Assembly (NCBI GenBank): GCA_030427725.1
Contig: JAUICV010000002.1
Coordinates: 136,436-200,435 of the forward strand
From: Chlamydiia bacterium
GTDB lineage: Bacteria; Chlamydiota; Chlamydiia; Chlamydiales; GCA-2402025
Length of the DNA stretch: 64,000 bases
Reading direction: 5' to 3'
The notes beneath the pieces are model-generated. The model was not told the DNA's origin, did not search any database, and saw only the letters and a program-made list of their open reading frames with translations. The position numbers were made by a program, and so were the translations under genes. Position 1 is the first letter of the stretch, and each line of letters begins with the position of its first letter. This document shows, in pieces, positions 240 through 35,619 of the stretch.

Positions 240-280
240 GATCGTTAAGATAGGCCAAAAAGTGATTACACAATTTGCCT

Positions 281-3200
281 ATGTCTCGACCCAATATCCC
301 TGAAAAAGCCAATAGAGTTTTAAACTACATTCTATTGGCTCTCTTTCTTATTTTATTAAGAGTTTGGTATTTAGGAATTTTTCAATATGACACCTACTTA
401 GAAATAGCAAAAAAACCAAAACAGAAAATAGAACTGATCACACCTTCAAGAGGGACTATCTACGATCGCGATCATATCGCGTTAGCAATTAATAAACTGC
501 AATATGACGCTTGTATCTTGTACGAAGACCTTCGCGAAATCCCAAGAGTCAAATGGATCAAAAAAGAAGGAAAAAAAACTAAAATTTATCCTCGGCAGGA
601 CTATATTGACAGTCTATGCCAACTCCTTTCTAAGGAACTATCACAAGATGCTCAAGAGATAAAAGATATCATTTACAGCCTAGCGGCTCTTTTCCCCTCA
701 ACCCCGATGACCTTGAAAAAGGATTTAACTGAGAGCCAGTACTATAGAATAAAAACCTTAGAGCGCACAAAAAAAGGTATCTATGCAAAAAAATCAGCAA
801 AGCGTTACTACCCCCAAGGAGCAATAGCCAGCGATCTCATAGGATATATTGGACAAGTCTCTGAAAAAGAATACTTTTACTATCAAAACACTGTAAAAAA
901 ATTACGAAAATATCTCAAAGAATACGAAGAGGGATTGCCTGTATTTCTTCCTGAAGGATACCACTCTGCAGAAGACGTAAAATTAAAGCTGAACAAATTA
1001 AACGAAAATCCATTACTACTTAGTGATATGACAGGTAAAAGCGGGTTAGAGCTGCAGTTTGATAAAGAGCTAAAAGGCCATTTTGGAACAACTCACTACG
1101 AAGTAAACAATAATGGGAAGTATCTTCGCAAACTTCCAGGATCTTGCGGCGCCATATCAGGAAAACAGATACATCTAAATCTCTCGTCAAAACTTCAAGC
1201 CCACGCTGAAAAGCTACTAGCTGAAAATGAACATCTACGCGATGTACGTTTTGAAACACTTGCAAAAGACAATCATAAAATCCCGAATCCCTGGATAAAA
1301 GGTGGCGCTATTGTCGCTTTAGATCCTAAGACAGGCCAGGTTTTGTGCATGGCCTCTTACCCCAGAATTAACGGAAATGACTTCATAGAAAAAAACAATA
1401 ATTCAACAAGGTGGCTCGAGTCCTCGCAATTTGTGGCCAATCTGTGGGATGGGATCTCATCGATGGAAAAAGAAATTTTCGATTTTAAAAGTAGCAAATA
1501 TGAAGTTAAAGAAAGAAAACTAACCTTCGAAACCTACCTCGATATGACTTTATCTCCTTACTGTCAGGTTAAGAAGTCGATAAAAAAAATCCCATCTATT
1601 CAAGAAGCTCGTAAAATAATTGAGTCCGTTGAGTCTTTACTAGATCTTTCAGAGCAACCATACATGTATGCTCTAATAGATACTATCTTCCCTAAAGACC
1701 CCTCAACAGTTTTTGGGACATCTAACAACGAACAAAACCTCATAAAAGACGCTTTAAACGAGCACCCTCAGCACGCGCAAAGCTTACTGTCTATTATCAA
1801 AACTTCATTCCAAAGCATTTCGAAAAATGATGATAAGCTATTATTTTTAGATCTTTTGAGACTTTTTTCACTGTCTAAAAATAGATTTGAAGAAGAGTCG
1901 TTTGATTTTTTATCTCTTCAACATCACTTCGAGATATCTCAAGCTTATTCTGTCATAAACAATCATCTAAAACCTCTTGCTAAAGAATGGTTTTTAGAAA
2001 ACAACTTTAAGATCTGGAGACAAGATTGCTTTTCACAGTTTTTGAAAGAAAAAAGAAAGGAAGAAAGAGAGAAAAAAACCTATCAAAGGCCCTACTTAAC
2101 CTATTTAAACCAAGCAAAAAAAGACCTTTTCGAGACTTTTTGGAATAATTACAAATGGGACTTATTTTTAGCGTTTGTCTTTGAAAAATCCTCCTCGAGC
2201 TTCGAAATTCAAAAGCACCTTCTAGCAATAGAACGCCATAAGGACCTAATTTTTACATCGTCTGAAAAGAACCCCACATTACTCTTATCTCTAGCAAAAC
2301 TTCAAAAACATCTAAAAGATTATGATGATGAGGCCAAGCTTTCTTTTTTAAAATCCCTTAGATCCTTCAAGGATTTAAAAGATCCTCTTTATGGGTACTA
2401 CAGTCAACTTCAAAAGAAAAAATTTTCACAAACTTTACAAGATTTAGCTAGAGCCTTTTACCCTCCTCGAAACTTTGCTTTTGGGAGATCTTATGCCTAT
2501 AGACAGGCTACACCACTGGGGTCTATTTTCAAGGTGGTCACAGGATACGAAGCAATCAGACAACAAACATTAAAAGACCCTTCTAAGAGCCTAAACCCTA
2601 TGACCGTCATTGATGAAACACAAGCCCGGCGAAAAAATTCCCCGCAAGTTCTTGGATTTACAAATGAAGGCAAAAAAATCCATAGACGCTACAAAGGAGG
2701 CACCCTTCCTAGATCTCACGATAGGCTCGGAAAAATTGATTATTTACTGGCTATGCAACGCTCTAGCAATATTTACTTCTCTCTTCTTGCTGCAGACGTT
2801 ATTGAAGATCCAAACGACTTAGTCACAGCTTCAATGAACTTTGGATTTGGATCGCGAACTGGCATTGATCTTCCAGGAGAAATCGCAGGTATCTTACCTC
2901 AAGATTTATCAAAAAATAAAAGCGGGCTCTATTCATTTGCTATTGGTCAACACTCTTTGATAGCTACGCCTCTTCAAACAGCTATCATGCTCAGCTCTCT
3001 TTGCAACGATGGGCACATTTTAAAACCTCAGATTATTCATAAAACTATTGGGAAAGAAGCTAAGTCTTTGAGTTGGGAAGACTCTAGTACAGGCTTTCTC
3101 TACGAGAACTATCTAAAATCTGTAGGAATTTATTTCCCTTTCTTTTTTGAAACTCATAAACAAGATGAAGAAGCTCTTACGACCCGGTATAAAAGACAAC

Positions 3201-3604
3201 TTCTTAAGAAAATCTATCTTCCAAAACACATTAAAACCTACCTTCTACAAAGCTTACATGGCGTTGTTTCTTCAGTAAAAGGATCCGCAAGGCCTCAGGC
3301 TATCAAATATCTTCGAAGAAATAATAAAGCATTTAGAAACTACGTTAAGCTACGCCATCAGTTAGCAGGAAAAACCTCTACTGCTGAGATTATGTATAAC
3401 CCTACCTTAGACAGGGAGTGTCCACCTCTTCTTACTAAAGATATTTGGTTTGGTGGTATTTCTTTCAAAGAAGATGACTCCAAATCAAAAGTTCCCGAGC
3501 TTGTAGTTGTTGTCTATTTAAGATTTGGAGACTACGGAAAGGAAGCCGCTCCATTAGCATCAGAGATTATCCACGAATACAGAAATCTGTGCCAATCTAA
3601 TTAG
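281..3604 (+). CDS. pbp2: Penicillin-binding protein 2 (class B transpeptidase), long chlamydial-type form
   Basis: ORF track starts at TTG 275; first ATG is 281. N-terminal TM helix (VLNYILLALFLILLRVWYLGIF) and PBP-dimerisation-like segment GTIYDRDHIALAINK. Transpeptidase motifs SxxK (SIFK), SxN (SSN) and KTG-like (KTST, Gly to Ser). About 1100 aa with large insertions, as I recall for Chlamydia PBP2. Confidence 0.85.
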   Translation: MSRPNIPEKANRVLNYILLALFLILLRVWYLGIFQYDTYLEIAKKPKQKIELITPSRGTIYDRDHIALAINKLQYDACILYEDLREIPRVKWIKKEGKKTKIYPRQDYIDSLCQLLSKELSQDAQEIKDIIYSLAALFPSTPMTLKKDLTESQYYRIKTLERTKKGIYAKKSAKRYYPQGAIASDLIGYIGQVSEKEYFYYQNTVKKLRKYLKEYEEGLPVFLPEGYHSAEDVKLKLNKLNENPLLLSDMTGKSGLELQFDKELKGHFGTTHYEVNNNGKYLRKLPGSCGAISGKQIHLNLSSKLQAHAEKLLAENEHLRDVRFETLAKDNHKIPNPWIKGGAIVALDPKTGQVLCMASYPRINGNDFIEKNNNSTRWLESSQFVANLWDGISSMEKEIFDFKSSKYEVKERKLTFETYLDMTLSPYCQVKKSIKKIPSIQEARKIIESVESLLDLSEQPYMYALIDTIFPKDPSTVFGTSNNEQNLIKDALNEHPQHAQSLLSIIKTSFQSISKNDDKLLFLDLLRLFSLSKNRFEEESFDFLSLQHHFEISQAYSVINNHLKPLAKEWFLENNFKIWRQDCFSQFLKEKRKEEREKKTYQRPYLTYLNQAKKDLFETFWNNYKWDLFLAFVFEKSSSSFEIQKHLLAIERHKDLIFTSSEKNPTLLLSLAKLQKHLKDYDDEAKLSFLKSLRSFKDLKDPLYGYYSQLQKKKFSQTLQDLARAFYPPRNFAFGRSYAYRQATPLGSIFKVVTGYEAIRQQTLKDPSKSLNPMTVIDETQARRKNSPQVLGFTNEGKKIHRRYKGGTLPRSHDRLGKIDYLLAMQRSSNIYFSLLAADVIEDPNDLVTASMNFGFGSRTGIDLPGEIAGILPQDLSKNKSGLYSFAIGQHSLIATPLQTAIMLSSLCNDGHILKPQIIHKTIGKEAKSLSWEDSSTGFLYENYLKSVGIYFPFFFETHKQDEEALTTRYKRQLLKKIYLPKHIKTYLLQSLHGVVSSVKGSARPQAIKYLRRNNKAFRNYVKLRHQLAGKTSTAEIMYNPTLDRECPPLLTKDIWFGGISFKEDDSKSKVPELVVVVYLRFGDYGKEAAPLASEIIHEYRNLCQSN

Positions 3605-4592
3605 AGTTTACAGAAACATCATCTATTACAAGAGCTTGTTTGTAAAAATTTATAGTTTTTCCCAAACCTTGCTCTAAGGATATTTTTGGCTGCCAGCCTA
3701 AAATATTTTTTGCTTTGGAAATATCTGGACATCTTAGTTGAGGATCATCTTTTGGCAACGGGTGAAATTTAATTTCTGATGATGAACAGCTCATAGCTAT
3801 GATTTTTTCTGCCAGCTCTTTTATAGAGATCTCTTCTGGATTCCCAAGGTTCATAGGCCCCTTGCACTCATCTTGATTCATAAAAGCTAGAATCGCTTCG
3901 ATTAAATCCTCAACATAACAAAAAGATCTTGTTTGTAAGCCATCGCCATAAATTGTTAGAGGTTTATCTTGCAAAGATTGACAGATCAAATTAGAGATAA
4001 CTCTTCCATCATCTTTATCCATAAAAGGTCCGTATGTATTAAAAATACGCCCTATCCTGATATCAACTCCAAAGAGATTTGAGTATTCCATAAAAAGTGT
4101 TTCTGACAGTCTCTTAGACTCATCATAGCAAGCTCTCGGCCCGACAGTATTTACAGACCCTAGATACGTTTCCTTTTGAGGGTGCTGTTTTGGATCACCG
4201 TAAATTTCACTTGTAGAAGAAAAGAAAATTTTTGCTTTGTTTTTTTTAGCAATCTCTAAAGTATTTTTCGCACCTAAAAAAGACGTTTCAATTGTCTTAA
4301 TGGGATCTTTTTGGTAATACTTCGGAGACGCCGGACAAGCTAGATGATAAATTTCATCACACTGAATATCAATTGGAGTTCTAATGTCGTGCTCAATGAT
4401 CTGAATGTTATCTTGAATCTCTTCTAAGTTTTTATAAGAGCCTGATGAAAAATCATCTATGGCAATAACTCTATGATCTAGATCTAACAGCTTCCTGCAA
4501 AGGTGCGACCCAATAAATCCTGCCGCTCCAGTTACTAAAACTGTTTTTTTTTCAGATAGTTTCTCATTATATCCAGAATACCCTTCAGCCAT
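3597..4592 (-). CDS. UDP-glucuronate decarboxylase (UDP-xylose synthase), extended SDR
   Basis: Rossmann motif VLVTGAAGFIGSHL; YDESKR (YxxxK); STSEIYGDP, GPRACYDE, RIFNTYGP and DGRVISN all match the UXS family closely. ORF track start 4658 is TTG; ATG at 4592 (MAEGYSGY...) gives a normal ~331-aa length. The 3' end overlaps the pbp2 3' end by 8 nt (convergent). Confidence 0.85.
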   Translation of the reverse strand: MAEGYSGYNEKLSEKKTVLVTGAAGFIGSHLCRKLLDLDHRVIAIDDFSSGSYKNLEEIQDNIQIIEHDIRTPIDIQCDEIYHLACPASPKYYQKDPIKTIETSFLGAKNTLEIAKKNKAKIFFSSTSEIYGDPKQHPQKETYLGSVNTVGPRACYDESKRLSETLFMEYSNLFGVDIRIGRIFNTYGPFMDKDDGRVISNLICQSLQDKPLTIYGDGLQTRSFCYVEDLIEAILAFMNQDECKGPMNLGNPEEISIKELAEKIIAMSCSSSEIKFHPLPKDDPQLRCPDISKAKNILGWQPKISLEQGLGKTINFYKQALVIDDVSVNSN

Positions 4593-4675
4593 AAAGCACC
4601 AAAAACATAGTATGTAAGTTGATATCACAAACACTTTTCTTCTCACAATACCTTCCAAATGTCAAAAAAAACCAC

Positions 4676-7606
4676 TTATAGTTTCATTTTAGAAAAGAGC
4701 AATCCGAAATTTTTTTTCTCTCCCACAAAAGACTGTAGATCATCTATAGACTCATTGTTTAGTGAAAGAACAGAAAAATCAGCCTTGTGAAATAAGTTTT
4801 TAGAAAAGGAGGTGTTATAGCCTTCTTTTGTTACCAAAAACACCACGTCATATCTTTTTTTCCAGGACTCTAATAGCTGCCCAAAAAATGGTCTTGCTAA
4901 AAGCTCCGTAAGATATTTTGTCTCTCCACCTAAGGGTAGCTTATGAATTTTTCCTATTTTTTCATAAACCAAAGTATCTTCAGCTTCTAAGATAGCGTGT
5001 AAGAGCCCCCCTTCAGATTCCTTACCTGAAAAAAGCTCAACAATTAAAACCTTTTGATCCGAGAGACTCATAAGATGAGCTAAAAAGATCTCATAAGAGG
5101 GCCCTTGCCTTTGAAATAACGAGACTACCTTAACGGGGTTTTGTCTGATCTGGCAGCAGATATTTCTAAGGGACTTAAGATCTCTATCACCTAGAGTTGT
5201 AAAGTCTTCCTGTAGCTTATTTTCATCATACTGCCCAAAAACAAGAACGTTTCTATCCTCTGCTCCAGCTAGCGATAGAACCAATCCTTTTCTAATACGA
5301 AAGAAAAGAAAAACCGTTAAATAAATCAAAGATGAAAAAATAGCTCCAATAACAGACCAAAGCACTGGCCTTCGTTTTATTGGGGCTAAGGAAGCCTCAG
5401 CCAAATCCACAGGACCTGATCCAATTTGCATGAGATGATGATCAATATTTTTTGATTCCACAAGTCTTGTAATACTTTCCATTGTTGCAAGGTTCAAATC
5501 TGCATCGAATTTCAATTCATTTTCCAATAGCCATTTCTGAGGAATAGATCGTGATTTTTGTTTTATCTCTGAAAGTTTTTCTTCAATAAATTCTTTTTCT
5601 TTTCTAAGAGATGAGACTTCTTGATTCACTTGTTTTTTTATTTGATTTTCTATGAGAGCTATCTCAGTTTCGAGCTGTTGAAATTGAGCTTTTTTAATTG
5701 CCTTTAGCTTTTTTTCACCTATCTCTTTTTGAGACTCAAATAGCTTTTTTTGATATCTCAAATATTCAATAAAAAGCCTTTCTTCTAACTTAAGCTTTTT
5801 TACAAGCCTTTGCTTTTCCTTTAAGGTCAACATTGATTGGTCTTTTAATTCATCTGAGACCTTAATCAACACCTGTAACTTTTGAAGCCCCTTTTGGGGA
5901 AGGTTTGTTGTTGCTAGCGCATTTGGGTCATATTTTTTTATCTGAAGATGCTCTAAGGCCAGGTCAATTTGTTGAGTTTGTAGTTTTAGTTGCTCTAAAA
6001 GATCTATTGTCTCAACGCAAAGTTTATCAATTGTTTTTAAATCAAGCCCTGCAAAAGCTTTATCGTCTGAACCTTTTTTATAAAAGGGGCTACTCAGCAG
6101 TCTTTCTTCTAACTGAACCATCTCAAGATAAGATTCTAAATAACCCTGAATCAGTTTTGTTTCTGTATTTTTCGCTGATAATAAAGTCGCTTTATCAAAG
6201 ACATTTGAAAAACTAGTCCTTTCTAGATGAATACTTTCACCCATTTTAAGTTGTCTAAGGAGTGTTTTAGCTTCTATTTTCAAGCGAGCTATCCTATCCA
6301 ATTCGCTTACCTTATTTTGGATAGCATCCTCATCATTTTGCTTTTTCAGCGAAAATTTCTGTTTGATCTCTTGAAGGCCTGGAAAAAATTCCTTATAAAT
6401 CGAGCTTGAAAAGATCTTGCTTTCTGGTTTTTGTAACCTAACAAACCCTAAAAAAGGCTCTTTTTCATGAGAGTTTTTTATATAGTCAGATAAATCTTTA
6501 GAAAAACCTCTATGTAAAAAGGCTGCTTTTCTCTTTTTTAACTCCGTAAGCTGAGCTCTCTCTCCAAAATTTTCATTAAGGGGACATTGTGACCCTTCAA
6601 TATGTGATAACTTCAAGCTAAGTCTTGTTAGATCTTTTAGAAGAACTTTTTTTCGCTCTTCAAACAGTTTCATTTGTTGGTTCAAACTAAAAAAGGCTTC
6701 CCCTCCATACTGGGACTTAATGTACCCTTTGTAGTTTTCCAGGCTTTGCTTTAGACTTTTCTTAATTTCTTCTTGTCGCTTTGCAAGAAAATTTAATTGC
6801 TCAACAGAGATTTTTTTATGATCAGATGCTAAATAGTCTTTATAGGTCTCCATATGAGTATTTAGAACTTTTGCAGCTAGAGCGCTATCTGTAGATCTGA
6901 AGCTCAAATCCAAAAGCCTTGGTTCATCTTTTCTAACTTTAATATTGAGGCTTTTAAAAAACGTTTTCAGAGCATCTTCTTTTGTCATGATTTTTAGAAG
7001 GTAAGTCTTCCCAAAAGACTTAAAATCTTTGGGGACATGAACTGAAAAGCTACAGTTTTCTACCCGAATTTTTTCTCGCAACAAGCCTTTGTAAATAAGC
7101 TTAGAACCCTTTTTAATTTCAAGGTGATGAGGGTCTTTGATTGTTACAAATAAAAAGAGGGTATCTTCCAAATTTGCTGAAAGATCCTTAATCTGAAACA
7201 GCGTTTTTTTTGATAGTTTTTTCCTAAAAAAAAGCGTCCCATTTTGAAAAAGGTCCTCCTTGATCTTTATGAGCGAATTTTCTGGGTAAACCTGCGCCTT
7301 TAAGGAAAGTTTATCGATCGTTTTAGAAGCCAAATTTTTTGAAAGCATTAGCTGCTGAGAGTAATTTCCAATCTCCGATGTCGCACTTAAATTAGTCAGC
7401 TGTTTCAAAAAATTCGCAGAGTTTGTTCCCTGCGATGCACTTGACTCTTTAAATACAGCTTTCGATTGATACTGGGGCTCTACTAGAAAAAACGTAAGTA
7501 TCAATACAAAAAAGGACAATGTAAACCACAAAAAAACCTTTTTTGATTTGTTTTTAATTTCTAGAGTTACATCAGAAATATGTACAAATTCTAGATGCTC
7601 TTTCAT
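4676..7606 (-). CDS. Polysaccharide co-polymerase (Wzc/PCP-2a-like) with long coiled-coil periplasmic region and degenerate C-terminal kinase-like domain
   Basis: Wzz-like N-terminus with TM1 (VFLWFTLSFFVLILTFFLV...PQYQSKAVFKE), ~690-aa helical/coiled-coil region, TM2 (VLWSVIGAIFSSLIYLTVFLFF), ~210-aa cytoplasmic domain. ATG at 7606 overlaps the wza-like stop as ATGA; track start 7639 is TTG. Confidence 0.65.
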   Translation of the reverse strand: MKEHLEFVHISDVTLEIKNKSKKVFLWFTLSFFVLILTFFLVEPQYQSKAVFKESSASQGTNSANFLKQLTNLSATSEIGNYSQQLMLSKNLASKTIDKLSLKAQVYPENSLIKIKEDLFQNGTLFFRKKLSKKTLFQIKDLSANLEDTLFLFVTIKDPHHLEIKKGSKLIYKGLLREKIRVENCSFSVHVPKDFKSFGKTYLLKIMTKEDALKTFFKSLNIKVRKDEPRLLDLSFRSTDSALAAKVLNTHMETYKDYLASDHKKISVEQLNFLAKRQEEIKKSLKQSLENYKGYIKSQYGGEAFFSLNQQMKLFEERKKVLLKDLTRLSLKLSHIEGSQCPLNENFGERAQLTELKKRKAAFLHRGFSKDLSDYIKNSHEKEPFLGFVRLQKPESKIFSSSIYKEFFPGLQEIKQKFSLKKQNDEDAIQNKVSELDRIARLKIEAKTLLRQLKMGESIHLERTSFSNVFDKATLLSAKNTETKLIQGYLESYLEMVQLEERLLSSPFYKKGSDDKAFAGLDLKTIDKLCVETIDLLEQLKLQTQQIDLALEHLQIKKYDPNALATTNLPQKGLQKLQVLIKVSDELKDQSMLTLKEKQRLVKKLKLEERLFIEYLRYQKKLFESQKEIGEKKLKAIKKAQFQQLETEIALIENQIKKQVNQEVSSLRKEKEFIEEKLSEIKQKSRSIPQKWLLENELKFDADLNLATMESITRLVESKNIDHHLMQIGSGPVDLAEASLAPIKRRPVLWSVIGAIFSSLIYLTVFLFFRIRKGLVLSLAGAEDRNVLVFGQYDENKLQEDFTTLGDRDLKSLRNICCQIRQNPVKVVSLFQRQGPSYEIFLAHLMSLSDQKVLIVELFSGKESEGGLLHAILEAEDTLVYEKIGKIHKLPLGGETKYLTELLARPFFGQLLESWKKRYDVVFLVTKEGYNTSFSKNLFHKADFSVLSLNNESIDDLQSFVGEKKNFGLLFSKMKL

Positions 7607-8670
7607 GGCAATGCAATAACCCCTGTCATACTTCTGCAAAATAAATCTATGGCTGTAAAGCTTGGGAATAGCTGAGATATAAATCTATTCCATTCTGTTA
7701 TCGGAGTTGCTGCAACATAGACAATGTCTCCAGGAATGAGTAATAAACTCTTCGAAGGAAGCCTTACAATATGCTTCCAATGAAGGGTATAAATTTTTGG
7801 CTTTAGGATATTTCCTCTAATCACTTGGATAAAAGAACGGTCTCCCGTAAATGGGATCCCTCCAGCTTTTGCTAAGGCTTCTCTAAGCGGGATGGATCCG
7901 CTAGTTACTGGAACCAACCCTCTTTGAACTACCTCTCCAAGCATCATCACATTAGAAGATGTTGGACTAGCTATATAAATTTTATCCCCACCTTTCATTA
8001 CAATGTTTTGTGACATATCTCCCTTAAGGAGTAGTTTGCTTAAGTCTACTGGCACAAAATGGTCTTTTCTTACAACGTAACTTAAAAACAAATTGGCGCT
8101 TGTCGGGACTTGCGCTCTAGAGACAACATCAAAAAGTCTGGTTTTCCCATCAATTGGAATTGAAGGTGTTTTAACTTCACCTGCAAGCTCCACTCTTTTC
8201 TCTAATCGATCTTTATAACTTAAAAAAATTTGAGCATCTTCTAGCTCTTCTTTATAAGCTAAATCAATTCTATTTTTTGCCTGTTCTATACTGAGCCCTT
8301 GAACTTTAATAAGGCCAAGATCCGGCAGGTTTATCGTCCCTTCTACAACTTGAAACCCTACCCCAGATTTTATTCTCTCAATTGCTGAGATCAAATCATT
8401 TCTAGTTGGGTGATATAACGAGATATTTAAAACATCCCCTTCTTCAATCACGTCATGATGCTCATCTAACAAAGCTGGATCTAAGTCTTCGATTTTAGCC
8501 CCTTCCATCTCTAGAATTGCATATTTACCATCTTGAATCTTGTATGAATCTAAAACTAGCTCTTCAGCTCCAAAGTGTTTATCTGAAAAATATGGCGGGG
8601 CTGAGGAGCAACTGGTTAACAAAACACCCAAGAAACCAATCACAAAATGCCACCGAAAAAGATTTTTCAT
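7603..8670 (-). CDS. wza: Outer-membrane polysaccharide export lipoprotein (Wza/OPX family)
   Basis: Signal peptide plus lipobox (FLGVLLTSC). Poly_export-like segment (EEGDVLNISLYH). Two SLBB-like segments (VELAGEVKTPSIPIDG; VMMLGEVVQRGLVPV). Confidence 0.75.
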   Translation of the reverse strand: MKNLFRWHFVIGFLGVLLTSCSSAPPYFSDKHFGAEELVLDSYKIQDGKYAILEMEGAKIEDLDPALLDEHHDVIEEGDVLNISLYHPTRNDLISAIERIKSGVGFQVVEGTINLPDLGLIKVQGLSIEQAKNRIDLAYKEELEDAQIFLSYKDRLEKRVELAGEVKTPSIPIDGKTRLFDVVSRAQVPTSANLFLSYVVRKDHFVPVDLSKLLLKGDMSQNIVMKGGDKIYIASPTSSNVMMLGEVVQRGLVPVTSGSIPLREALAKAGGIPFTGDRSFIQVIRGNILKPKIYTLHWKHIVRLPSKSLLLIPGDIVYVAATPITEWNRFISQLFPSFTAIDLFCRSMTGVIALP

Positions 8671-8791
8671 AGTTAGGCTCGTAAAATATTAATTCGGGTG
8701 AAGATAGCAAATCTTATCGATTTCGATAAAGCAGATAGAACGTTAAAGAGGATTCTTTGTTGTCAGACTTTTGAGACAGGGCTTTTAAAAG

Positions 8792-9799
8792 CTACGCCAT
8801 GTGACCGCTTAATAAGTCTTCTGGAGTCGACCTAATATCCATCCCAAGGTATTTCATGCAGCTCCCGATACTATAATCGTGAGACTTTGAGCGATCTTCG
8901 TAGGCTGTTGGTATCATAAATTTCTCTCCAAACCGACCAGGTGTTTTAATGCAAAAAATAGATGAAGCAACATCTAATACGGTATAAATTTTTCTGTCAC
9001 TAACCCAATCACTTTTGACAGTGAGATGTGTGATAAGATCTCTGGCTTTTTTTAGTTTTTTTCTTCCCAATTTTTGTTGCAACCCAGCTCCTAGTTGAAG
9101 AGAATTTGTACAAAACGCTTCTGTGTCATTATTCAATGCCACATAAGAAGCAATGGAGCCTCCAAAACATTGACCAGTGAGTATGATATTTTTCCCCTTT
9201 AATCTCGGATCTTTCATAAGATCCTTAAAGAGAACTTCTGCTTGAAGATAGACCTTTGGAGTGATACCCGTCATATTCCCCATAGCACTCCAATACATTT
9301 TGAGATGAAGGCTTTTCTTCATTTTGTCGTCAGATACTTCAGAATGATGTGACCTCAATGCTCCAAAAGAAATGATGACCTTATTTTCTTTTAAAGAAAC
9401 TGCGGCTTTTAAACCGGATTTAGGATCAAAAAAACAGAGATCCTTTTTCTCAAGCCCAGAGCTAGAAATGGCAAACGACTTTGGAGGTAGCACTTCATAT
9501 CCGAATGGCTCAATCCATTTTTTATCCGAAGAGTGAACTAAGGCAGTTGAGCACACTAGATCCATATTTTTAAGTAGCTTGTCTTTCGGGTAAAAACCTT
9601 TATGGAAAAATTGATGATTCAGACCAAATTTTGTCCCCACATATCTAACTGGGAATAAAAGAGTGTCTTTTAGAAAAACTACAAAAGCTTTTATCGCTCT
9701 ATAAGCAACCAAACAGATTTGCTTAAGTTTTTGCGAAGTGTTACTATTTTCTTGCTGAAAATGATCAATCTGAGAGTATGGAATTGAGCTTACTTGCAT
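8792..9799 (-). CDS. Alpha/beta-hydrolase, class-3-lipase-like fold with Cys in the nucleophile elbow
   Basis: ISFGAL...ILTGQCFGGSIASYVAL resembles lipase_3 (FRGT...GHSLGGALA) but with GxCxG. Candidate Asp (KSDWVSD) and His (SKSHDYS) lie downstream. The start ATG lies 1 nt after the glgA-glgB stop. Confidence 0.45.
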   Translation of the reverse strand: MQVSSIPYSQIDHFQQENSNTSQKLKQICLVAYRAIKAFVVFLKDTLLFPVRYVGTKFGLNHQFFHKGFYPKDKLLKNMDLVCSTALVHSSDKKWIEPFGYEVLPPKSFAISSSGLEKKDLCFFDPKSGLKAAVSLKENKVIISFGALRSHHSEVSDDKMKKSLHLKMYWSAMGNMTGITPKVYLQAEVLFKDLMKDPRLKGKNIILTGQCFGGSIASYVALNNDTEAFCTNSLQLGAGLQQKLGRKKLKKARDLITHLTVKSDWVSDRKIYTVLDVASSIFCIKTPGRFGEKFMIPTAYEDRSKSHDYSIGSCMKYLGMDIRSTPEDLLSGHMA

Positions 9800-9800
9800 C

Positions 9801-31120: not shown

Positions 31121-34078
31121 ATGTCAGCTCTCTTAAAAAAACTCTTTGGAACCGCTCAAAGTAGACAATTAAAAAAATATTCAAAACTCGTGAAAGAGGT
31201 CAATAGCTTCGACGAGAAATTTCAATCTTTATCAGAAGAGGAGCTTCGCTCTAAGACAGCTGAGCTCAAAAATCGCTACAAACAAGGCGAGTCTCTCGAC
31301 GCTCTTCTACCAGAAGCCTATGGACTTGTCAAAGTTGCGTGCCGGCAATTAGTAGGTACAGAAGTTGATGTTTCTGGATATTCCCAAAAATGGGACATGG
31401 TACCCTATGATGTTCAGATCCTAGGAGCTATTTCTATGCACTATGGAAGTGTATCAGAGATGCAAACTGGAGAAGGTAAAACGCTAACAGCTTCAATGCC
31501 CCTTTTTCTAAATTCCTTATCTGGAAAGCCTGTCCACTTAGTCACCGTAAACGATTACTTAGCTCAAAGAGACTGTGAATGGATTGGGGCTATTTTTAGA
31601 AAGCTTGGCATCATCGTTAAACCTCTTACATCGCAAACACCTCCACAGGAAAGAAAGGATGTATATCAGGCAGATATCGTCTACGGAACCTCCTCTGAGT
31701 TTGGATTCGATTACCTAAGAGACAATTCTATGGCGCATCGTATTGAAGAGCAGTGCCAAAGAGGTCATTTTTTTGCCATCGTTGATGAAATTGATTCTAT
31801 TTTAATCGACGAAGCTAGGACGCCTCTTATTATTTCAGGGCCTTCAAATGCCTCAACACAAATGTATGACACTTTGAAAGATCCCGTAAGTTATATCGTG
31901 AAAAAGCAAAGAGATCTTTGTAACAAGTTGGCGTCTGAATCAAAAAAAGTATTGGACAACCTTGGAAGTCTAAAAGAATACACAGCTGATGAGAGCAAAC
32001 CAAAGCTATCTAAAGATCAAAATGAACAACTTCAAACTGCCCTTAGAAACCTTTGGCTTGTCAGCAAAGGAACTCCTCAAAATAAGCTTCTAAAAAGGGT
32101 TAAAGAACATCCCGATATTAGAGCTGATCTTGAGAAAATAGAAACCTATTTCCATGCTGAACCTAATAAAGAAGAAAGACAGGACATCCTCTCTGAGCTA
32201 TATATCATCATCGAAGAGCGTTCTAGCGAATACGAATTGACAGACAAAGGTATACAAACCTGGTCTACTTACCAAAATTCCCCAGATGCCGCGAATGATT
32301 TTGTCATGCTAGACTTGGGAGAAGAATATGCTCGCATCGATGACAATCAAGAGTTTTCTGAAGAAGATAAAATGGCTGAAAAAGTTCGAGTTCGAGAAGA
32401 AGATGCAAAGCGTAAAGAAAGGGCTCACAACTTAAGACAGCTCTTTAGAGCTCACCTTCTTATGGAAAAAGATATCGACTATATCATCGAAGATCGAAAG
32501 ATTGTGATTATCGACGAAAATACAGGGCGACCTCAACCTGGAAGAAGATTCTCTGATGGTCTGCATCAAGCTATTGAAGCAAAGGAAAGCTGCCCTATTC
32601 AGCAAGAAACTCAAACTTACGCTACGATTACTTTGCAAAATTACTTTAGAATGTACGACAAGTTAGCCGGCATGACAGGTACTGCTATGACAGAGGCTAA
32701 TGAGTTAAAGCAAATATACAAGATTGATGTTTTAGAAATTCCAACTCACAGAAAGTGCGTTCGTCAAGATCTTAACGATGAAATTTATATGACAGAGCGT
32801 GAAAAATATAACGCTATTGTCAAAGACATCACCGAAATCCACTCTAAAGGACAAGCGATTCTAATAGGAACGGAGTCTGTTGAAGTTTCTGAAAAACTCT
32901 CCAGAATTTTAAAACAGAACAAACTTCCTCATACGATCTTAAACGCTAAAAACCACGCAAAAGAAGCAGAGATTATTGCTGATGCTGGGAAAAAAGGAGC
33001 CATAACAGTGGCAACCAACATGGCAGGGCGTGGAACAGATATTAAATTAGATACAGAGGTCGCTCAAAATGGAGGCCTTTATGTCATTGGTACGACAAGG
33101 CACCAATCAAGAAGAATCGATAGACAGTTAAGAGGTCGTTGCGCTAGACAAGGAGATCCGGGCGCTTCGAAATTCTATGTCTCTTTTGAAGACTCTTTAA
33201 TGAGGCTTTTTGCGTCTCCAAAGTTAACCATGTTTTTACAGAAGTTTAGACCTCCTGAAGGAGAGCCAATTTCTGCTCCGATTCTTAATAAATCTATAGA
33301 AACTGCTCAGAAAAGAGTTGAGCAAAGAAACTATGCCATTCGAAAACACACTCTTGAATATGACGATGTCATGAATAAGCAGCGGCAAGAAATATACGCC
33401 TTTAGAAACGAGATCCTGTCTACAGATGATCCGATTTCAATCTGCTATGGCATTATCGAAAACATGAGTGAGATGAATGCAGAAAAATTCTTTACCTCGA
33501 GATCCGATGAATTTGGTTGGGACGCTAGAGGATTTGCAGATTGGATTATCAGCAACTTCCCGGTTTCTGCCGAAGCTAAAGAGTTTGATAATGACGATAT
33601 TACAATCGAAGAGATCAAACAAACAGCTTCAAAAAGAATTTTAGATGCCTTTAAAAAGAAGCTTGATCATCAAGTAGATATCATTGCGCACATACAAAAA
33701 TCTGCTCAACGAGACATTGAGCCAATTTCTGTGATCAAAGACATTGTTAGAAGCGTATTAATAGCCAATATAGACAGACACTGGCAAGAGCACTTGTTAG
33801 CTATTGATCATCTAAGAACTGAAGTGAACTTACGAGTTGTTGGGCAAAAAGACCCTCTACAAGAGTTTAAACATGAAGCGTTTTATCTCTTTGATCAGTT
33901 CACAACAACTGTTCGAGAAGAAATAGCTCATGCTCTTTATAAATTCGAGATGATGCCCCCTCAAGAACAACCTCTACATGAATCTATCTCGTCTTTACAA
34001 AGTAGAAACTATCCAAGATTTTACTCTGAAGAAAGTGAAGTAGAAGTCGAGTCAGAACTAAAGCTCATTAAAAGTTAG
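31121..34078 (+). CDS. secA: Preprotein translocase ATPase SecA
   Basis: MQTGEGKTL (Walker A), VDEIDSILIDEARTPLIISG, TNMAGRGTDIKL, LRGRCARQGDPG; 985 aa. Confidence 0.95.
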   Translation: MSALLKKLFGTAQSRQLKKYSKLVKEVNSFDEKFQSLSEEELRSKTAELKNRYKQGESLDALLPEAYGLVKVACRQLVGTEVDVSGYSQKWDMVPYDVQILGAISMHYGSVSEMQTGEGKTLTASMPLFLNSLSGKPVHLVTVNDYLAQRDCEWIGAIFRKLGIIVKPLTSQTPPQERKDVYQADIVYGTSSEFGFDYLRDNSMAHRIEEQCQRGHFFAIVDEIDSILIDEARTPLIISGPSNASTQMYDTLKDPVSYIVKKQRDLCNKLASESKKVLDNLGSLKEYTADESKPKLSKDQNEQLQTALRNLWLVSKGTPQNKLLKRVKEHPDIRADLEKIETYFHAEPNKEERQDILSELYIIIEERSSEYELTDKGIQTWSTYQNSPDAANDFVMLDLGEEYARIDDNQEFSEEDKMAEKVRVREEDAKRKERAHNLRQLFRAHLLMEKDIDYIIEDRKIVIIDENTGRPQPGRRFSDGLHQAIEAKESCPIQQETQTYATITLQNYFRMYDKLAGMTGTAMTEANELKQIYKIDVLEIPTHRKCVRQDLNDEIYMTEREKYNAIVKDITEIHSKGQAILIGTESVEVSEKLSRILKQNKLPHTILNAKNHAKEAEIIADAGKKGAITVATNMAGRGTDIKLDTEVAQNGGLYVIGTTRHQSRRIDRQLRGRCARQGDPGASKFYVSFEDSLMRLFASPKLTMFLQKFRPPEGEPISAPILNKSIETAQKRVEQRNYAIRKHTLEYDDVMNKQRQEIYAFRNEILSTDDPISICYGIIENMSEMNAEKFFTSRSDEFGWDARGFADWIISNFPVSAEAKEFDNDDITIEEIKQTASKRILDAFKKKLDHQVDIIAHIQKSAQRDIEPISVIKDIVRSVLIANIDRHWQEHLLAIDHLRTEVNLRVVGQKDPLQEFKHEAFYLFDQFTTTVREEIAHALYKFEMMPPQEQPLHESISSLQSRNYPRFYSEESEVEVESELKLIKS

Positions 34079-34767: not shown

Positions 34768-35619
34768 TTATCTCCAACTCTCAGCCCAGTAATGAATTGC
34801 AAAAGTTTCCGGAATGCAAAAGCTTCTTATTTGACTATCTAAAAGAACTCCCTTCCGATAGTCAAATCGATAACTATTCGGGAGAGGATGGAAATATCTC
34901 GTTGGATAAATCATGTAATTTTTAGGTGATTTTTTCAAAGACCTACACAAACTACGAGTCAAAAGGAAGGGCCCTGTTTGATACCATGGATTATTTAGTT
35001 GATTAGCCTTTATACCCTTCAACTTGTCTAAAAGATCTTTTATTGCAGGGTGGCCTGGGATGACACCTATGACAGAGTTTGCAATATATGTCTGATCTCC
35101 TAGGGATGTGAAAAAACTATGAGCATTAACTAAAACATCTAAAGGCCTGATGCACTCAAAATCGATATCAACATAGACACCCCCAAATTGATAAAGGATT
35201 TCATAGCGAAGTATATCTGCTTTTGCTCCAATAGAAGCTACTTGATTGAATGCCTTACGACACATCGTAAACTTAAAATTCTCTAAGTCTTGATCGGTCC
35301 AAAGCTTGTATTCCCAATCTGGATGCTTTTTCTTCCAAGTCTCTATTAACCCTTGGAATTTCTTCGGCAAAGGTCCTCCTATCCAAATCTGGTGGAGTTT
35401 TTTTGGAATTCGCTTATGAGCCTCTGGTGCAATTTCGAAATGATTTGTTTCAAAAAGTTTTTTCACAAAATGACAGAGTTTGTTTGCTTTTGAGTTGCTA
35501 TACTCACTTTCCATAGACTGCTCAAAACATGTAAATGATAGGCAACTTACTGAAAAAAATCCCAAAATTCTAAATATTTTTTTGTTTTTTGAATCTTTCT
35601 TCTCTATAAAATGCGTCAT
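34768..35619 (-). CDS. DXD-motif glycosyltransferase (GT32 / Gly_transf_sug-like) with N-terminal membrane anchor
   Basis: IPKKLHQIWIGGPLP...HPDWEYKLWTD...KADILRYEILYQFGGVYVDIDFECIRPL matches the Och1/Sur1/TcdA-type sugar-binding region. N-terminal hydrophobic segment IFRILGFFSVSCLSFTCF. Confidence 0.75.
   Translation of the reverse strand: MTHFIEKKDSKNKKIFRILGFFSVSCLSFTCFEQSMESEYSNSKANKLCHFVKKLFETNHFEIAPEAHKRIPKKLHQIWIGGPLPKKFQGLIETWKKKHPDWEYKLWTDQDLENFKFTMCRKAFNQVASIGAKADILRYEILYQFGGVYVDIDFECIRPLDVLVNAHSFFTSLGDQTYIANSVIGVIPGHPAIKDLLDKLKGIKANQLNNPWYQTGPFLLTRSLCRSLKKSPKNYMIYPTRYFHPLPNSYRFDYRKGVLLDSQIRSFCIPETFAIHYWAESWR

Follow-up and report, generated by a model that had tools for sequence, protein, structure and literature searches.

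The gene wzcL, found in a 64,000-nucleotide stretch of DNA (hereafter the window) from a Chlamydiia bacterium (GenBank assembly GCA_030427725.1, contig JAUICV010000002.1, positions 136,436 to 200,435 of the forward strand), encodes a polysaccharide co-polymerase of the PCP-2a type whose C-terminal domain keeps the BY-kinase fold (BY, bacterial tyrosine) with every catalytic motif lost. In the current model, PCP-2a proteins have to cycle between a phosphorylated, dissociated state and a dephosphorylated, octameric state to polymerize and export capsule. WzcL is predicted to be unable to take part in such a cycle as an autokinase, and we propose that it probably partners with the adjacent Wza, serving Wza-dependent export of polysaccharide as a scaffold that needs no phosphorylation. 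Both the kinase loss and an enlarged periplasmic arm are traits of a large family, mainly from Chlamydiota bins, and not the oddity of one gene.

The relationship of WzcL to PCP-2a proteins is nearly invisible to searches with the single sequence. WzcL gave no meaningful match in the PDB, only a sub-threshold Wzz match in Pfam (E = 0.0023) and, in NCBIfam, weak matches to an Etk/Wzc-type model (residues 22–297) and to two BY-kinase models (residues 867–938); the match to PRK09841 had an E-value of 2.8e-6. A family profile was therefore required, for which 80 WzcL family members were aligned. This profile matched the full-length Wzc structures of E. coli K30 and K-12 with E-values of 2.4e-36 and about 1e-30, respectively. 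The match to 7NHR (E = 2.4e-36) covered Wzc residues 26–371 and 411–654, which are the N-terminal periplasmic part and the part comprising the second transmembrane segment and the kinase domain, and the isolated kinase domains of Etk, VpsO, BceF, Wzc and CapAB were matched with E-values of 7e-11 to 1e-4. Profile–profile alignment by hhalign of the 80-sequence family with 10 canonical PCP-2a kinases, which carry the Pfam domains Wzz, GNVR and AAA_31/CbiA and an invariant GK in Walker A, gave a probability of 99.9% and an E-value of about 1e-33 over WzcL residues 4–953.

Structure prediction led to the same assignment. An AlphaFold2 (AF2) model of WzcL built on the 80-sequence alignment had a mean predicted local distance difference test score (pLDDT) of 82.8, and superseded an unusable model built on 3 sequences only (pLDDT 43.8). 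In the cytoplasmic domain the means of 10-residue blocks were mostly 81–96, falling to 63–81 over the last 20 residues. Foldseek matched the model to full-length Wzc chains (E = 1e-25) and to kinase-domain crystal structures from Etk, Wzc, BceF and CapAB, the latter with E-values of 1e-7 to 1e-5 and target TM-scores of 0.61–0.70. Given the profile, profile–profile, AF2 and Foldseek matches, WzcL is a genuine PCP-2a-type co-polymerase with a C-terminal BY-kinase-fold domain, and the proviso of the initial annotation that this domain might turn out to be unrelated to the BY-kinase fold is contradicted by both the profile and the Foldseek matches to kinase domains.

The reading frame of wzcL is intact over 976 codons. 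A mechanical list of open reading frames (ORFs) opens it earlier, at TTG 7639. The ATG at 7606 and the wza stop codon overlap (GCC ATG A), the homologues share an M-x-K-E start, and the protein called in the NCBI and Logan assemblies is identical to the 976-residue product; ATG 7606 is therefore the true start, and wzcL is translationally coupled to wza. A scan for promoters and terminators across positions 3300–9900 returned fewer sites than shuffled sequence. A Kyte–Doolittle window scan detected only two transmembrane segments, at residues 22–44 and 747–771, both of which are helical in the AF2 model; consequently, the periplasmic region comprises 702 residues and the cytoplasmic tail 205. 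The PCP-2a-like topology first suggested for this protein, with two transmembrane segments, a periplasmic region and a cytoplasmic domain, is thus upheld by hydropathy, AF2 and profiles alike.

The cytoplasmic domain has lost its catalytic motifs. At Walker A, where the canonical sequence ..TS..P.EGKT/S is aligned by hhalign with ..FQR-----QGPS, the P-loop of WzcL is 5 residues shorter, and the positions of the Lys and the Ser/Thr are taken by G835 and P836. Walker A′ (canonically LLIDxDxRkP, or hhhhDxDxR) reads LIVELFSGK, both Asp residues being replaced, by E857 and F859. At Walker B (canonically YDxhhhDsPP, or hhhhDTPP), V925 stands in place of the Asp and K927/E928 in place of the Pro-Pro pair. 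The positions of the ExxRxxR motif are occupied by R808, K811 and R814, a pattern that departs from the motif of active BY-kinases. The protein ends in FSKMKL about 20 residues past the last aligned strand, and Y919 and Y930 are the only tyrosines beyond residue 916. The degenerate strings that the initial annotation had assigned to Walker A, A′ and B lie where it placed them, and hhalign aligns each of them with its motif; its statement that a C-terminal tyrosine cluster is missing also stands, the last tyrosine being Y930. An intact P-loop elsewhere in the domain, which it had named as evidence that would speak against its view, is placed by none of the profile alignments.

These losses are shared across the family, as counted in 151 inspected members. 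Neither WzcL nor any of these members shows the pattern G.{4}GK[ST] in its cytoplasmic domain. When the seven commonest residues of each column are listed, Lys does not figure in the Walker A Lys column, which has Gly in 84 of the 151, and Asp does not figure in the Walker B Asp column, where V, Y or F is found. At most one Tyr is present in the last 20 residues of 124 members. The family consensus of the loop is a Gly-rich GGKGP, and WzcL's own QRQGP is more degenerate. Because the P-loop is short and without the Lys–Ser/Thr pair, Walker A′ and B have lost their Mg/catalytic Asp residues and no tyrosine tail is left to be phosphorylated, the sequence predicts firmly that the WzcL domain cannot act as an autokinase.

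Loss of the motifs was not accompanied by loss of the domain. Its mean pairwise identity within the family is 31%, compared with 23–34% in the other regions of the protein, and G774, G791, R814, G867, G893, E901, F908, Y919 and E952 are near-invariant across at least 80 diverse members. Since it is as conserved as the rest of the protein, the domain is retained and not decaying.

The size of the family had escaped word-based searching. A word-indexed protein search with WzcL returned 2 relatives only, at 33% identity, and the same type of search with the 80-sequence profile added canonical Wzc proteins only. An exhaustive hidden Markov model (HMM) search seeded by a three-sequence profile retrieved 970 cluster representatives at E ≤ 1e-3, of which 630 were at E ≤ 1e-30; the top 150 matches each scored at least 335 bits and were 717–1034 residues long. 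WzcL is therefore a member of a large family that word-based search misses. A Simkaniaceae bin is the source of one of the NCBI members. Database names of family members range from 'hypothetical protein' to 'tyrosine-protein kinase Etk/Wzc'. Two members outside the window, P0025 and P0165, bear the source names 'tyrosine-protein kinase Etk/Wzc' or 'uncharacterized protein involved in exopolysaccharide biosynthesis'; as the catalytic motifs are lost family-wide, the kinase name of P0025 is a misannotation.

The periplasmic region consists of a mixed alpha/beta base (residues ~45–240), which matches the position of the jellyroll of E. coli Wzc, followed by a helical arm; in the AF2 secondary structure, strands occupy residues 104–238 and helices extend from 241 to 729. 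The hhalign segment map leaves 313 periplasmic residues unmatched by canonical PCP-2a proteins. The main block of these, residues 314–523, is helical with a disordered linker in the AF2 model and is the most variable region of the family (occupancy 0.59, mean identity 25%); the smaller blocks are residues 108–136, 140–148, 590–610 and 658–665. An origin of the main insertion by simple duplication of the helical arm was considered and is not supported, as arm segments aligned with one another by hhalign reached probabilities below 8% only. The median distance between the transmembrane segments is 664 residues in the family (interquartile range 603–690), and it is 401 residues in the canonical comparators with two detected transmembrane segments. 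The unusually long periplasmic span of the initial annotation thus holds when measured in residues (702, with 313 extra). Cryo-electron microscopy of the E. coli Wza–Wzc complex places the contact with Wza at the arm's tip, at Wzc residues 332–338 (PMC12881504). As the insertion falls in this same arm, chlamydial WzcL probably contacts Wza via residues different from those used by E. coli Wzc.

The gene wza itself encodes a class-1 outer-membrane polysaccharide export (OPX) lipoprotein with the Pfam domains Poly_export, SLBB_2 and Wza_C, an NCBIfam match to PRK15078 (E = 7.7e-28) and a lipobox, LLTSC, at residues 17–21. Among the related loci, which are given L numbers, wza lies directly upstream of the wzcL homologue in every one that holds upstream DNA (L001, L002, L004–L010 and L012–L016); L003 includes only the 3′ end of wzcL, and L011 begins inside wzcL. 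Where the whole gene is held, the Wza proteins of the relatives are 47–74% identical to that of the window, compared with 23–33% for WzcL. Downstream of wzcL is epim1, whose probable start is M23 of the listed ORF. The homologue of epim1 directly follows wzcL in L001–L003, L005–L012 and L015, lies about 1.8–2.6 kb further downstream in L004 and L016, and was undetected in L013 and L014. The common gene order is GT9-GT9-GpsA-YjeF (GT, glycosyltransferase), epim2 on the opposite strand, wza-wzcL-epim1, and PBP2 on the opposite strand. In the relatives epim2 is divergent from wza; in the window a block at 8792–14240, comprising a GlgA-GlgB gene and an unannotated 335-residue ORF, is inserted between the two, which are adjacent in all relatives that carry both. 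A profile scan of GTDB representative genomes, seeded by a 15-sequence subset of the family, confirmed 11 wzcL loci. Six bear the label Chlamydiota, Chlamydiia, Chlamydiae or Parachlamydiales, and five bear other or uninformative ones; most of these five share the chlamydial gene order. The coordinates of the window features are given in Table 1.

Table 1. Features of wzcL and of the genes associated with it; positions are those of the window.
Feature	Position	Strand	Basis or remark
wzcL, PCP-2a-like co-polymerase with dead BY-kinase domain (976 aa + stop)	4676..7606	-	
First transmembrane segment, residues 22-44	7475..7543	-	Kyte-Doolittle scan
Periplasmic region, residues 45-746	5369..7474	-	AF2 secondary structure, Foldseek, hhalign
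Main arm insertion, residues 314-523 (210 aa)	6038..6667	-	query-only block in hhalign segment map
Second transmembrane segment, residues 747-771	5294..5368	-	hydropathy scan
Cytoplasmic BY-kinase-fold pseudokinase domain, residues 772-976	4679..5293	-	profile and Foldseek matches
R814, sole conserved ExxRxxR residue	5165..5167	-	hhalign; 148/151 family members
Degenerate Walker A FQRQGPSY, residues 831-838	5093..5116	-	hhalign, family column counts
Degenerate Walker A′ LIVELF, residues 854-859	5030..5047	-	hhalign, column counts
Degenerate Walker B YDVVFLVTKE, residues 919-928	4823..4852	-	hhalign, column counts
wza, class-1 OPX lipoprotein (355 aa)	7603..8670	-	Pfam, NCBIfam, lipobox
epim1, nucleotide-sugar dehydratase/decarboxylase-like, short-chain dehydrogenase/reductase (SDR) type	3597..4592	-	Pfam and NCBIfam
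epim2, GalE/TviC-like nucleotide-sugar 4-epimerase	14578..15531	+	

In L013 (locus positions 3888–8417 and 12534–13469), from a Parachlamydiales bin, wza-wzcL stands beside the type III secretion genes SctJ, SctL, SctR and SctT, and a GT2 glycosyltransferase gene takes the place of the epimerase after the pair. L001, the closest relative, carries a dual-specificity phosphatase (DSPc) gene at locus positions 5818–6396, between YjeF and the wza cassette; the window and the other loci lack it.

Based on the retained Wzc body plan, the conserved and empty kinase domain, the loss of a phosphorylation substrate and the coupling to wza, we propose a phosphorylation-independent role for WzcL at the side of Wza; an oligomeric ring, a polysaccharide as the substrate and the long arm's geometry are likewise inferred. 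The body plan, namely the first transmembrane segment, the alpha/beta base, the helical arm, the second transmembrane segment and the BY-kinase-fold domain, is kept. The cytoplasmic domain would act as a structural ring or docking platform that organizes the oligomer and its engagement with Wza, the cycle of phosphorylation and dephosphorylation that controls E. coli Wzc would not operate, and the roughly 313 extra residues of the arm would probably have the contact with Wza made differently. Such a role fits the finding that in E. coli the kinase domain, by oligomerizing, drives Wzc to engage Wza (PMC12881504). The pseudokinase scaffold of the initial annotation thus has two parts: the dead domain with a BY-kinase fold is borne out, and the scaffold is what we infer from it.

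Several observations weigh against this proposal. Genes for a Wzx flippase, a Wzy polymerase or an initiating phosphoglycosyltransferase were found neither in the 64-kb window nor in the flanks of 13 related loci, and there were no polytopic membrane proteins, as candidates for Wzx or Wzy, among the window ORFs without a Pfam match. As regards the ring, only one of the three ExxRxxR interface residues is conserved in the family. The consensus GGKGP loop may allow an atypical binding of nucleotide or phosphate in some members. Finally, a stand-alone kinase or phosphatase may be encoded outside the window, although no second BY-kinase was detected by tblastn, either in the window or, in the relatives, within 10 kb, and no phosphatase of the low-molecular-weight protein tyrosine phosphatase or PHP type was present among the scanned window ORFs of at least 100 residues or seen in the flanks examined.

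The last two of these observations bear on the possibility that the dead domain is a regulated switch, controlled by a ligand, by a partner protein or in trans by a separate BY-kinase or phosphatase. We consider this unlikely, as the domain has no tyrosine tail to serve as a target, no kinase lies within 10 kb at any locus, and the DSPc gene, which in L001 is about 2.5 kb from the cassette and could be taken for such a regulator, is missing from the window and from all other loci. In favor of a switch, the genome is seen through 64 kb only, the GGKGP loop is kept in the consensus, the second Asp of Walker A′ persists in 43 of the 151 members, and cycles of binding and unbinding have been proposed for EcpK by Blocher et al. 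A divergent but active ATPase or kinase using a non-canonical nucleotide site is very improbable. One family member is automatically annotated as 'tyrosine-protein kinase Etk/Wzc', and a Lys precedes the GP pair (−1 position) in 51 of the 151 members; however, WzcL has a Q at this position, its P-loop is 5 residues shorter and has no GK[ST], hydrophobic residues fill the Walker B Asp column across the whole family, and no alternative Walker A exists anywhere in the domain. That the domain is a decaying, pseudogene-like remnant, as the loss of every catalytic motif might suggest, is scarcely credible and effectively refuted by the family conservation, given the intact frame, the confident model, the 31% family identity and the near-invariant residues.

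A different kind of alternative accepts the pairing of the two proteins and places it beyond capsule or exopolysaccharide (EPS) export, with Wza and WzcL co-opted for another envelope polymer or for a structural link across the envelope. The missing Wzx, Wzy and phosphoglycosyltransferase genes would fit it, as would the conserved adjacency to PBP2 and to genes resembling heptosyltransferases of the lipopolysaccharide core, and no report of a capsule in environmental chlamydiae was found in the literature searched. Yet Wza keeps all OPX domains, including the Wza_C helix, two sugar-nucleotide SDR genes are linked to the pair, a GT2 gene is present in some loci, and the adjacency to PBP2 may be mere inherited gene order, which together make co-option improbable. 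We therefore favor WzcL as the scaffold partner of Wza in polysaccharide export, as the probable reading.

Among the closest known systems is E. coli Wzc (PDB 7NHR and 9R62–9R6B), with which WzcL shares two transmembrane segments, a base with a helical arm, a fused BY-kinase fold and an adjacent wza. Unlike E. coli Wzc, it has no Walker A, A′ or B motif and no Tyr tail, its P-loop is 5 residues shorter, it keeps only the last Arg of ExxRxxR, its periplasmic region measures 702 residues instead of ~400, no wzb phosphatase gene is linked to it, and the identity in structural alignment is only ~10–12%. The cytoplasmic domain also shares its fold with the PCP-2b system CapA/CapB of S. aureus (Foldseek TM-scores 0.61–0.70), where CapB, in contrast, is an active, separate protein with a Tyr cluster.

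Catalytically dead BY-kinase domains in PCP-2 systems, fused ones included, are already known, as exemplified by EcpK/EpsV and HfsB/HfsA (PMC12004946). EPS synthesis requires the pseudokinase EcpK, which binds the PCP-2 protein that it partners, and a phosphorylation-independent scaffold role has been proposed for both EcpK and HfsB (PMC12004946). EcpK/EpsV is like WzcL in having a BY-kinase fold that lacks the Walker motifs and the Tyr tail and in the proposed scaffold role; it differs in that the pseudokinase is a separate protein there, whereas in WzcL it is joined covalently to the transmembrane and periplasmic PCP part within a single ORF, and in that the partner of EpsV is a D1D2 OPX protein with a beta-barrel, whereas that of WzcL is a class-1 Wza with a C-terminal helix. 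Fused PCP-2 BY-pseudokinases have been listed for S. meliloti (SMc01795), Mesorhizobium (Mlr8439) and V. vulnificus (VV1_2305) (Cuthbertson et al., 2009, via PMC12004946). As described in that secondary account, these proteins combine, like WzcL, a transmembrane/periplasmic PCP part and a kinase-like domain without catalytic residues in one polypeptide; unlike WzcL they are proteobacterial and known from sequence only, and the account, by whose description they are compared here, mentions no enlarged arm. In the literature searched, we found no description of the mainly Chlamydiota family, its short P-loop, its arm larger by ~300 residues or its isolated wza-wzcL-epimerase cassette. A Wza cluster is merely listed among the predicted chlamydial outer-membrane proteins by Heinz et al. 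(2009).

More tentatively, and with less than even confidence, we suggest that environmental Chlamydiota may possess an ancient and widely conserved Wza–WzcL exporter spanning the envelope, in which control by tyrosine phosphorylation has been given up for good and the arm has grown to nearly twice the usual length. If so, these intracellular bacteria would make an undescribed surface or secreted polysaccharide, and WzcL would be a natural, always kinase-dead, tail-less and fused Wzc for asking whether PCP-2a proteins can do without phosphorylation cycling. The emerging phosphorylation-independent mode of PCP-2 function gains support from a large family of fused proteins predicted not to be phosphorylatable, each accompanied by a conserved Wza. 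The family also directs attention to a system for exporting polysaccharide in chlamydia-like bacteria; its many sequences are a resource for testing which interface residues matter.

Other features of the window include the GlgA-GlgB fusion of the inserted block (9801–14240 on the minus strand), a 1479-residue protein with a starch-synthase domain followed by CBM48, alpha-amylase and alpha-amylase_C domains. A gene for a GlgC-like ADP-glucose pyrophosphorylase is located 25 kb away at 39037–40317 on the plus strand. GlgA-GlgB fusions have been reported only in the Waddliaceae and Criblamydiaceae, both of which have lost glgC (PMC7935935); the fusion thus marks the source of the window as chlamydia-like. 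As the fusion and a glgC-like gene are both present here, this genome may represent an intermediate state.

The GT9-GpsA order conserved in the relatives is broken in the window by an IS30-like transposase with HTH_38 and rve domains (18408–19349, minus strand), an IS4/IS5-like DDE transposase (20589–21701, minus strand) and a second copy that is split into two ORFs (22145–23141, plus strand). Paralogous ORFs at 19470–20600 (plus), 23433–24530 (plus) and 46261–47208 (minus) share hydrophobic, signal-peptide-like N-termini and the motif GR(T/L)GDRxxSL, and match no Pfam or NCBIfam family. The region at 42308–46245 (plus strand) contains a fused ATP-sulfurylase/adenosine 5′-phosphosulfate kinase, that is, a 3′-phosphoadenosine 5′-phosphosulfate synthase (42870–44618), flanked by small ORFs with pseudopilin-like N-termini, e.g., HPLTLLEILLSL; a link of this region to sulfated glycans is possible. 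A 283-residue protein encoded at 34768–35619 on the minus strand has a DXD sugar-binding region and also matches the catalytic glycosyltransferase domain of TcdA/TcdB, and may be an effector-type glycosyltransferase. Large insertions inside the standard domains are also found in PBP2 (275–3604, plus strand, 1109 residues) and in SecA (31121–34078, plus strand, 985 residues).

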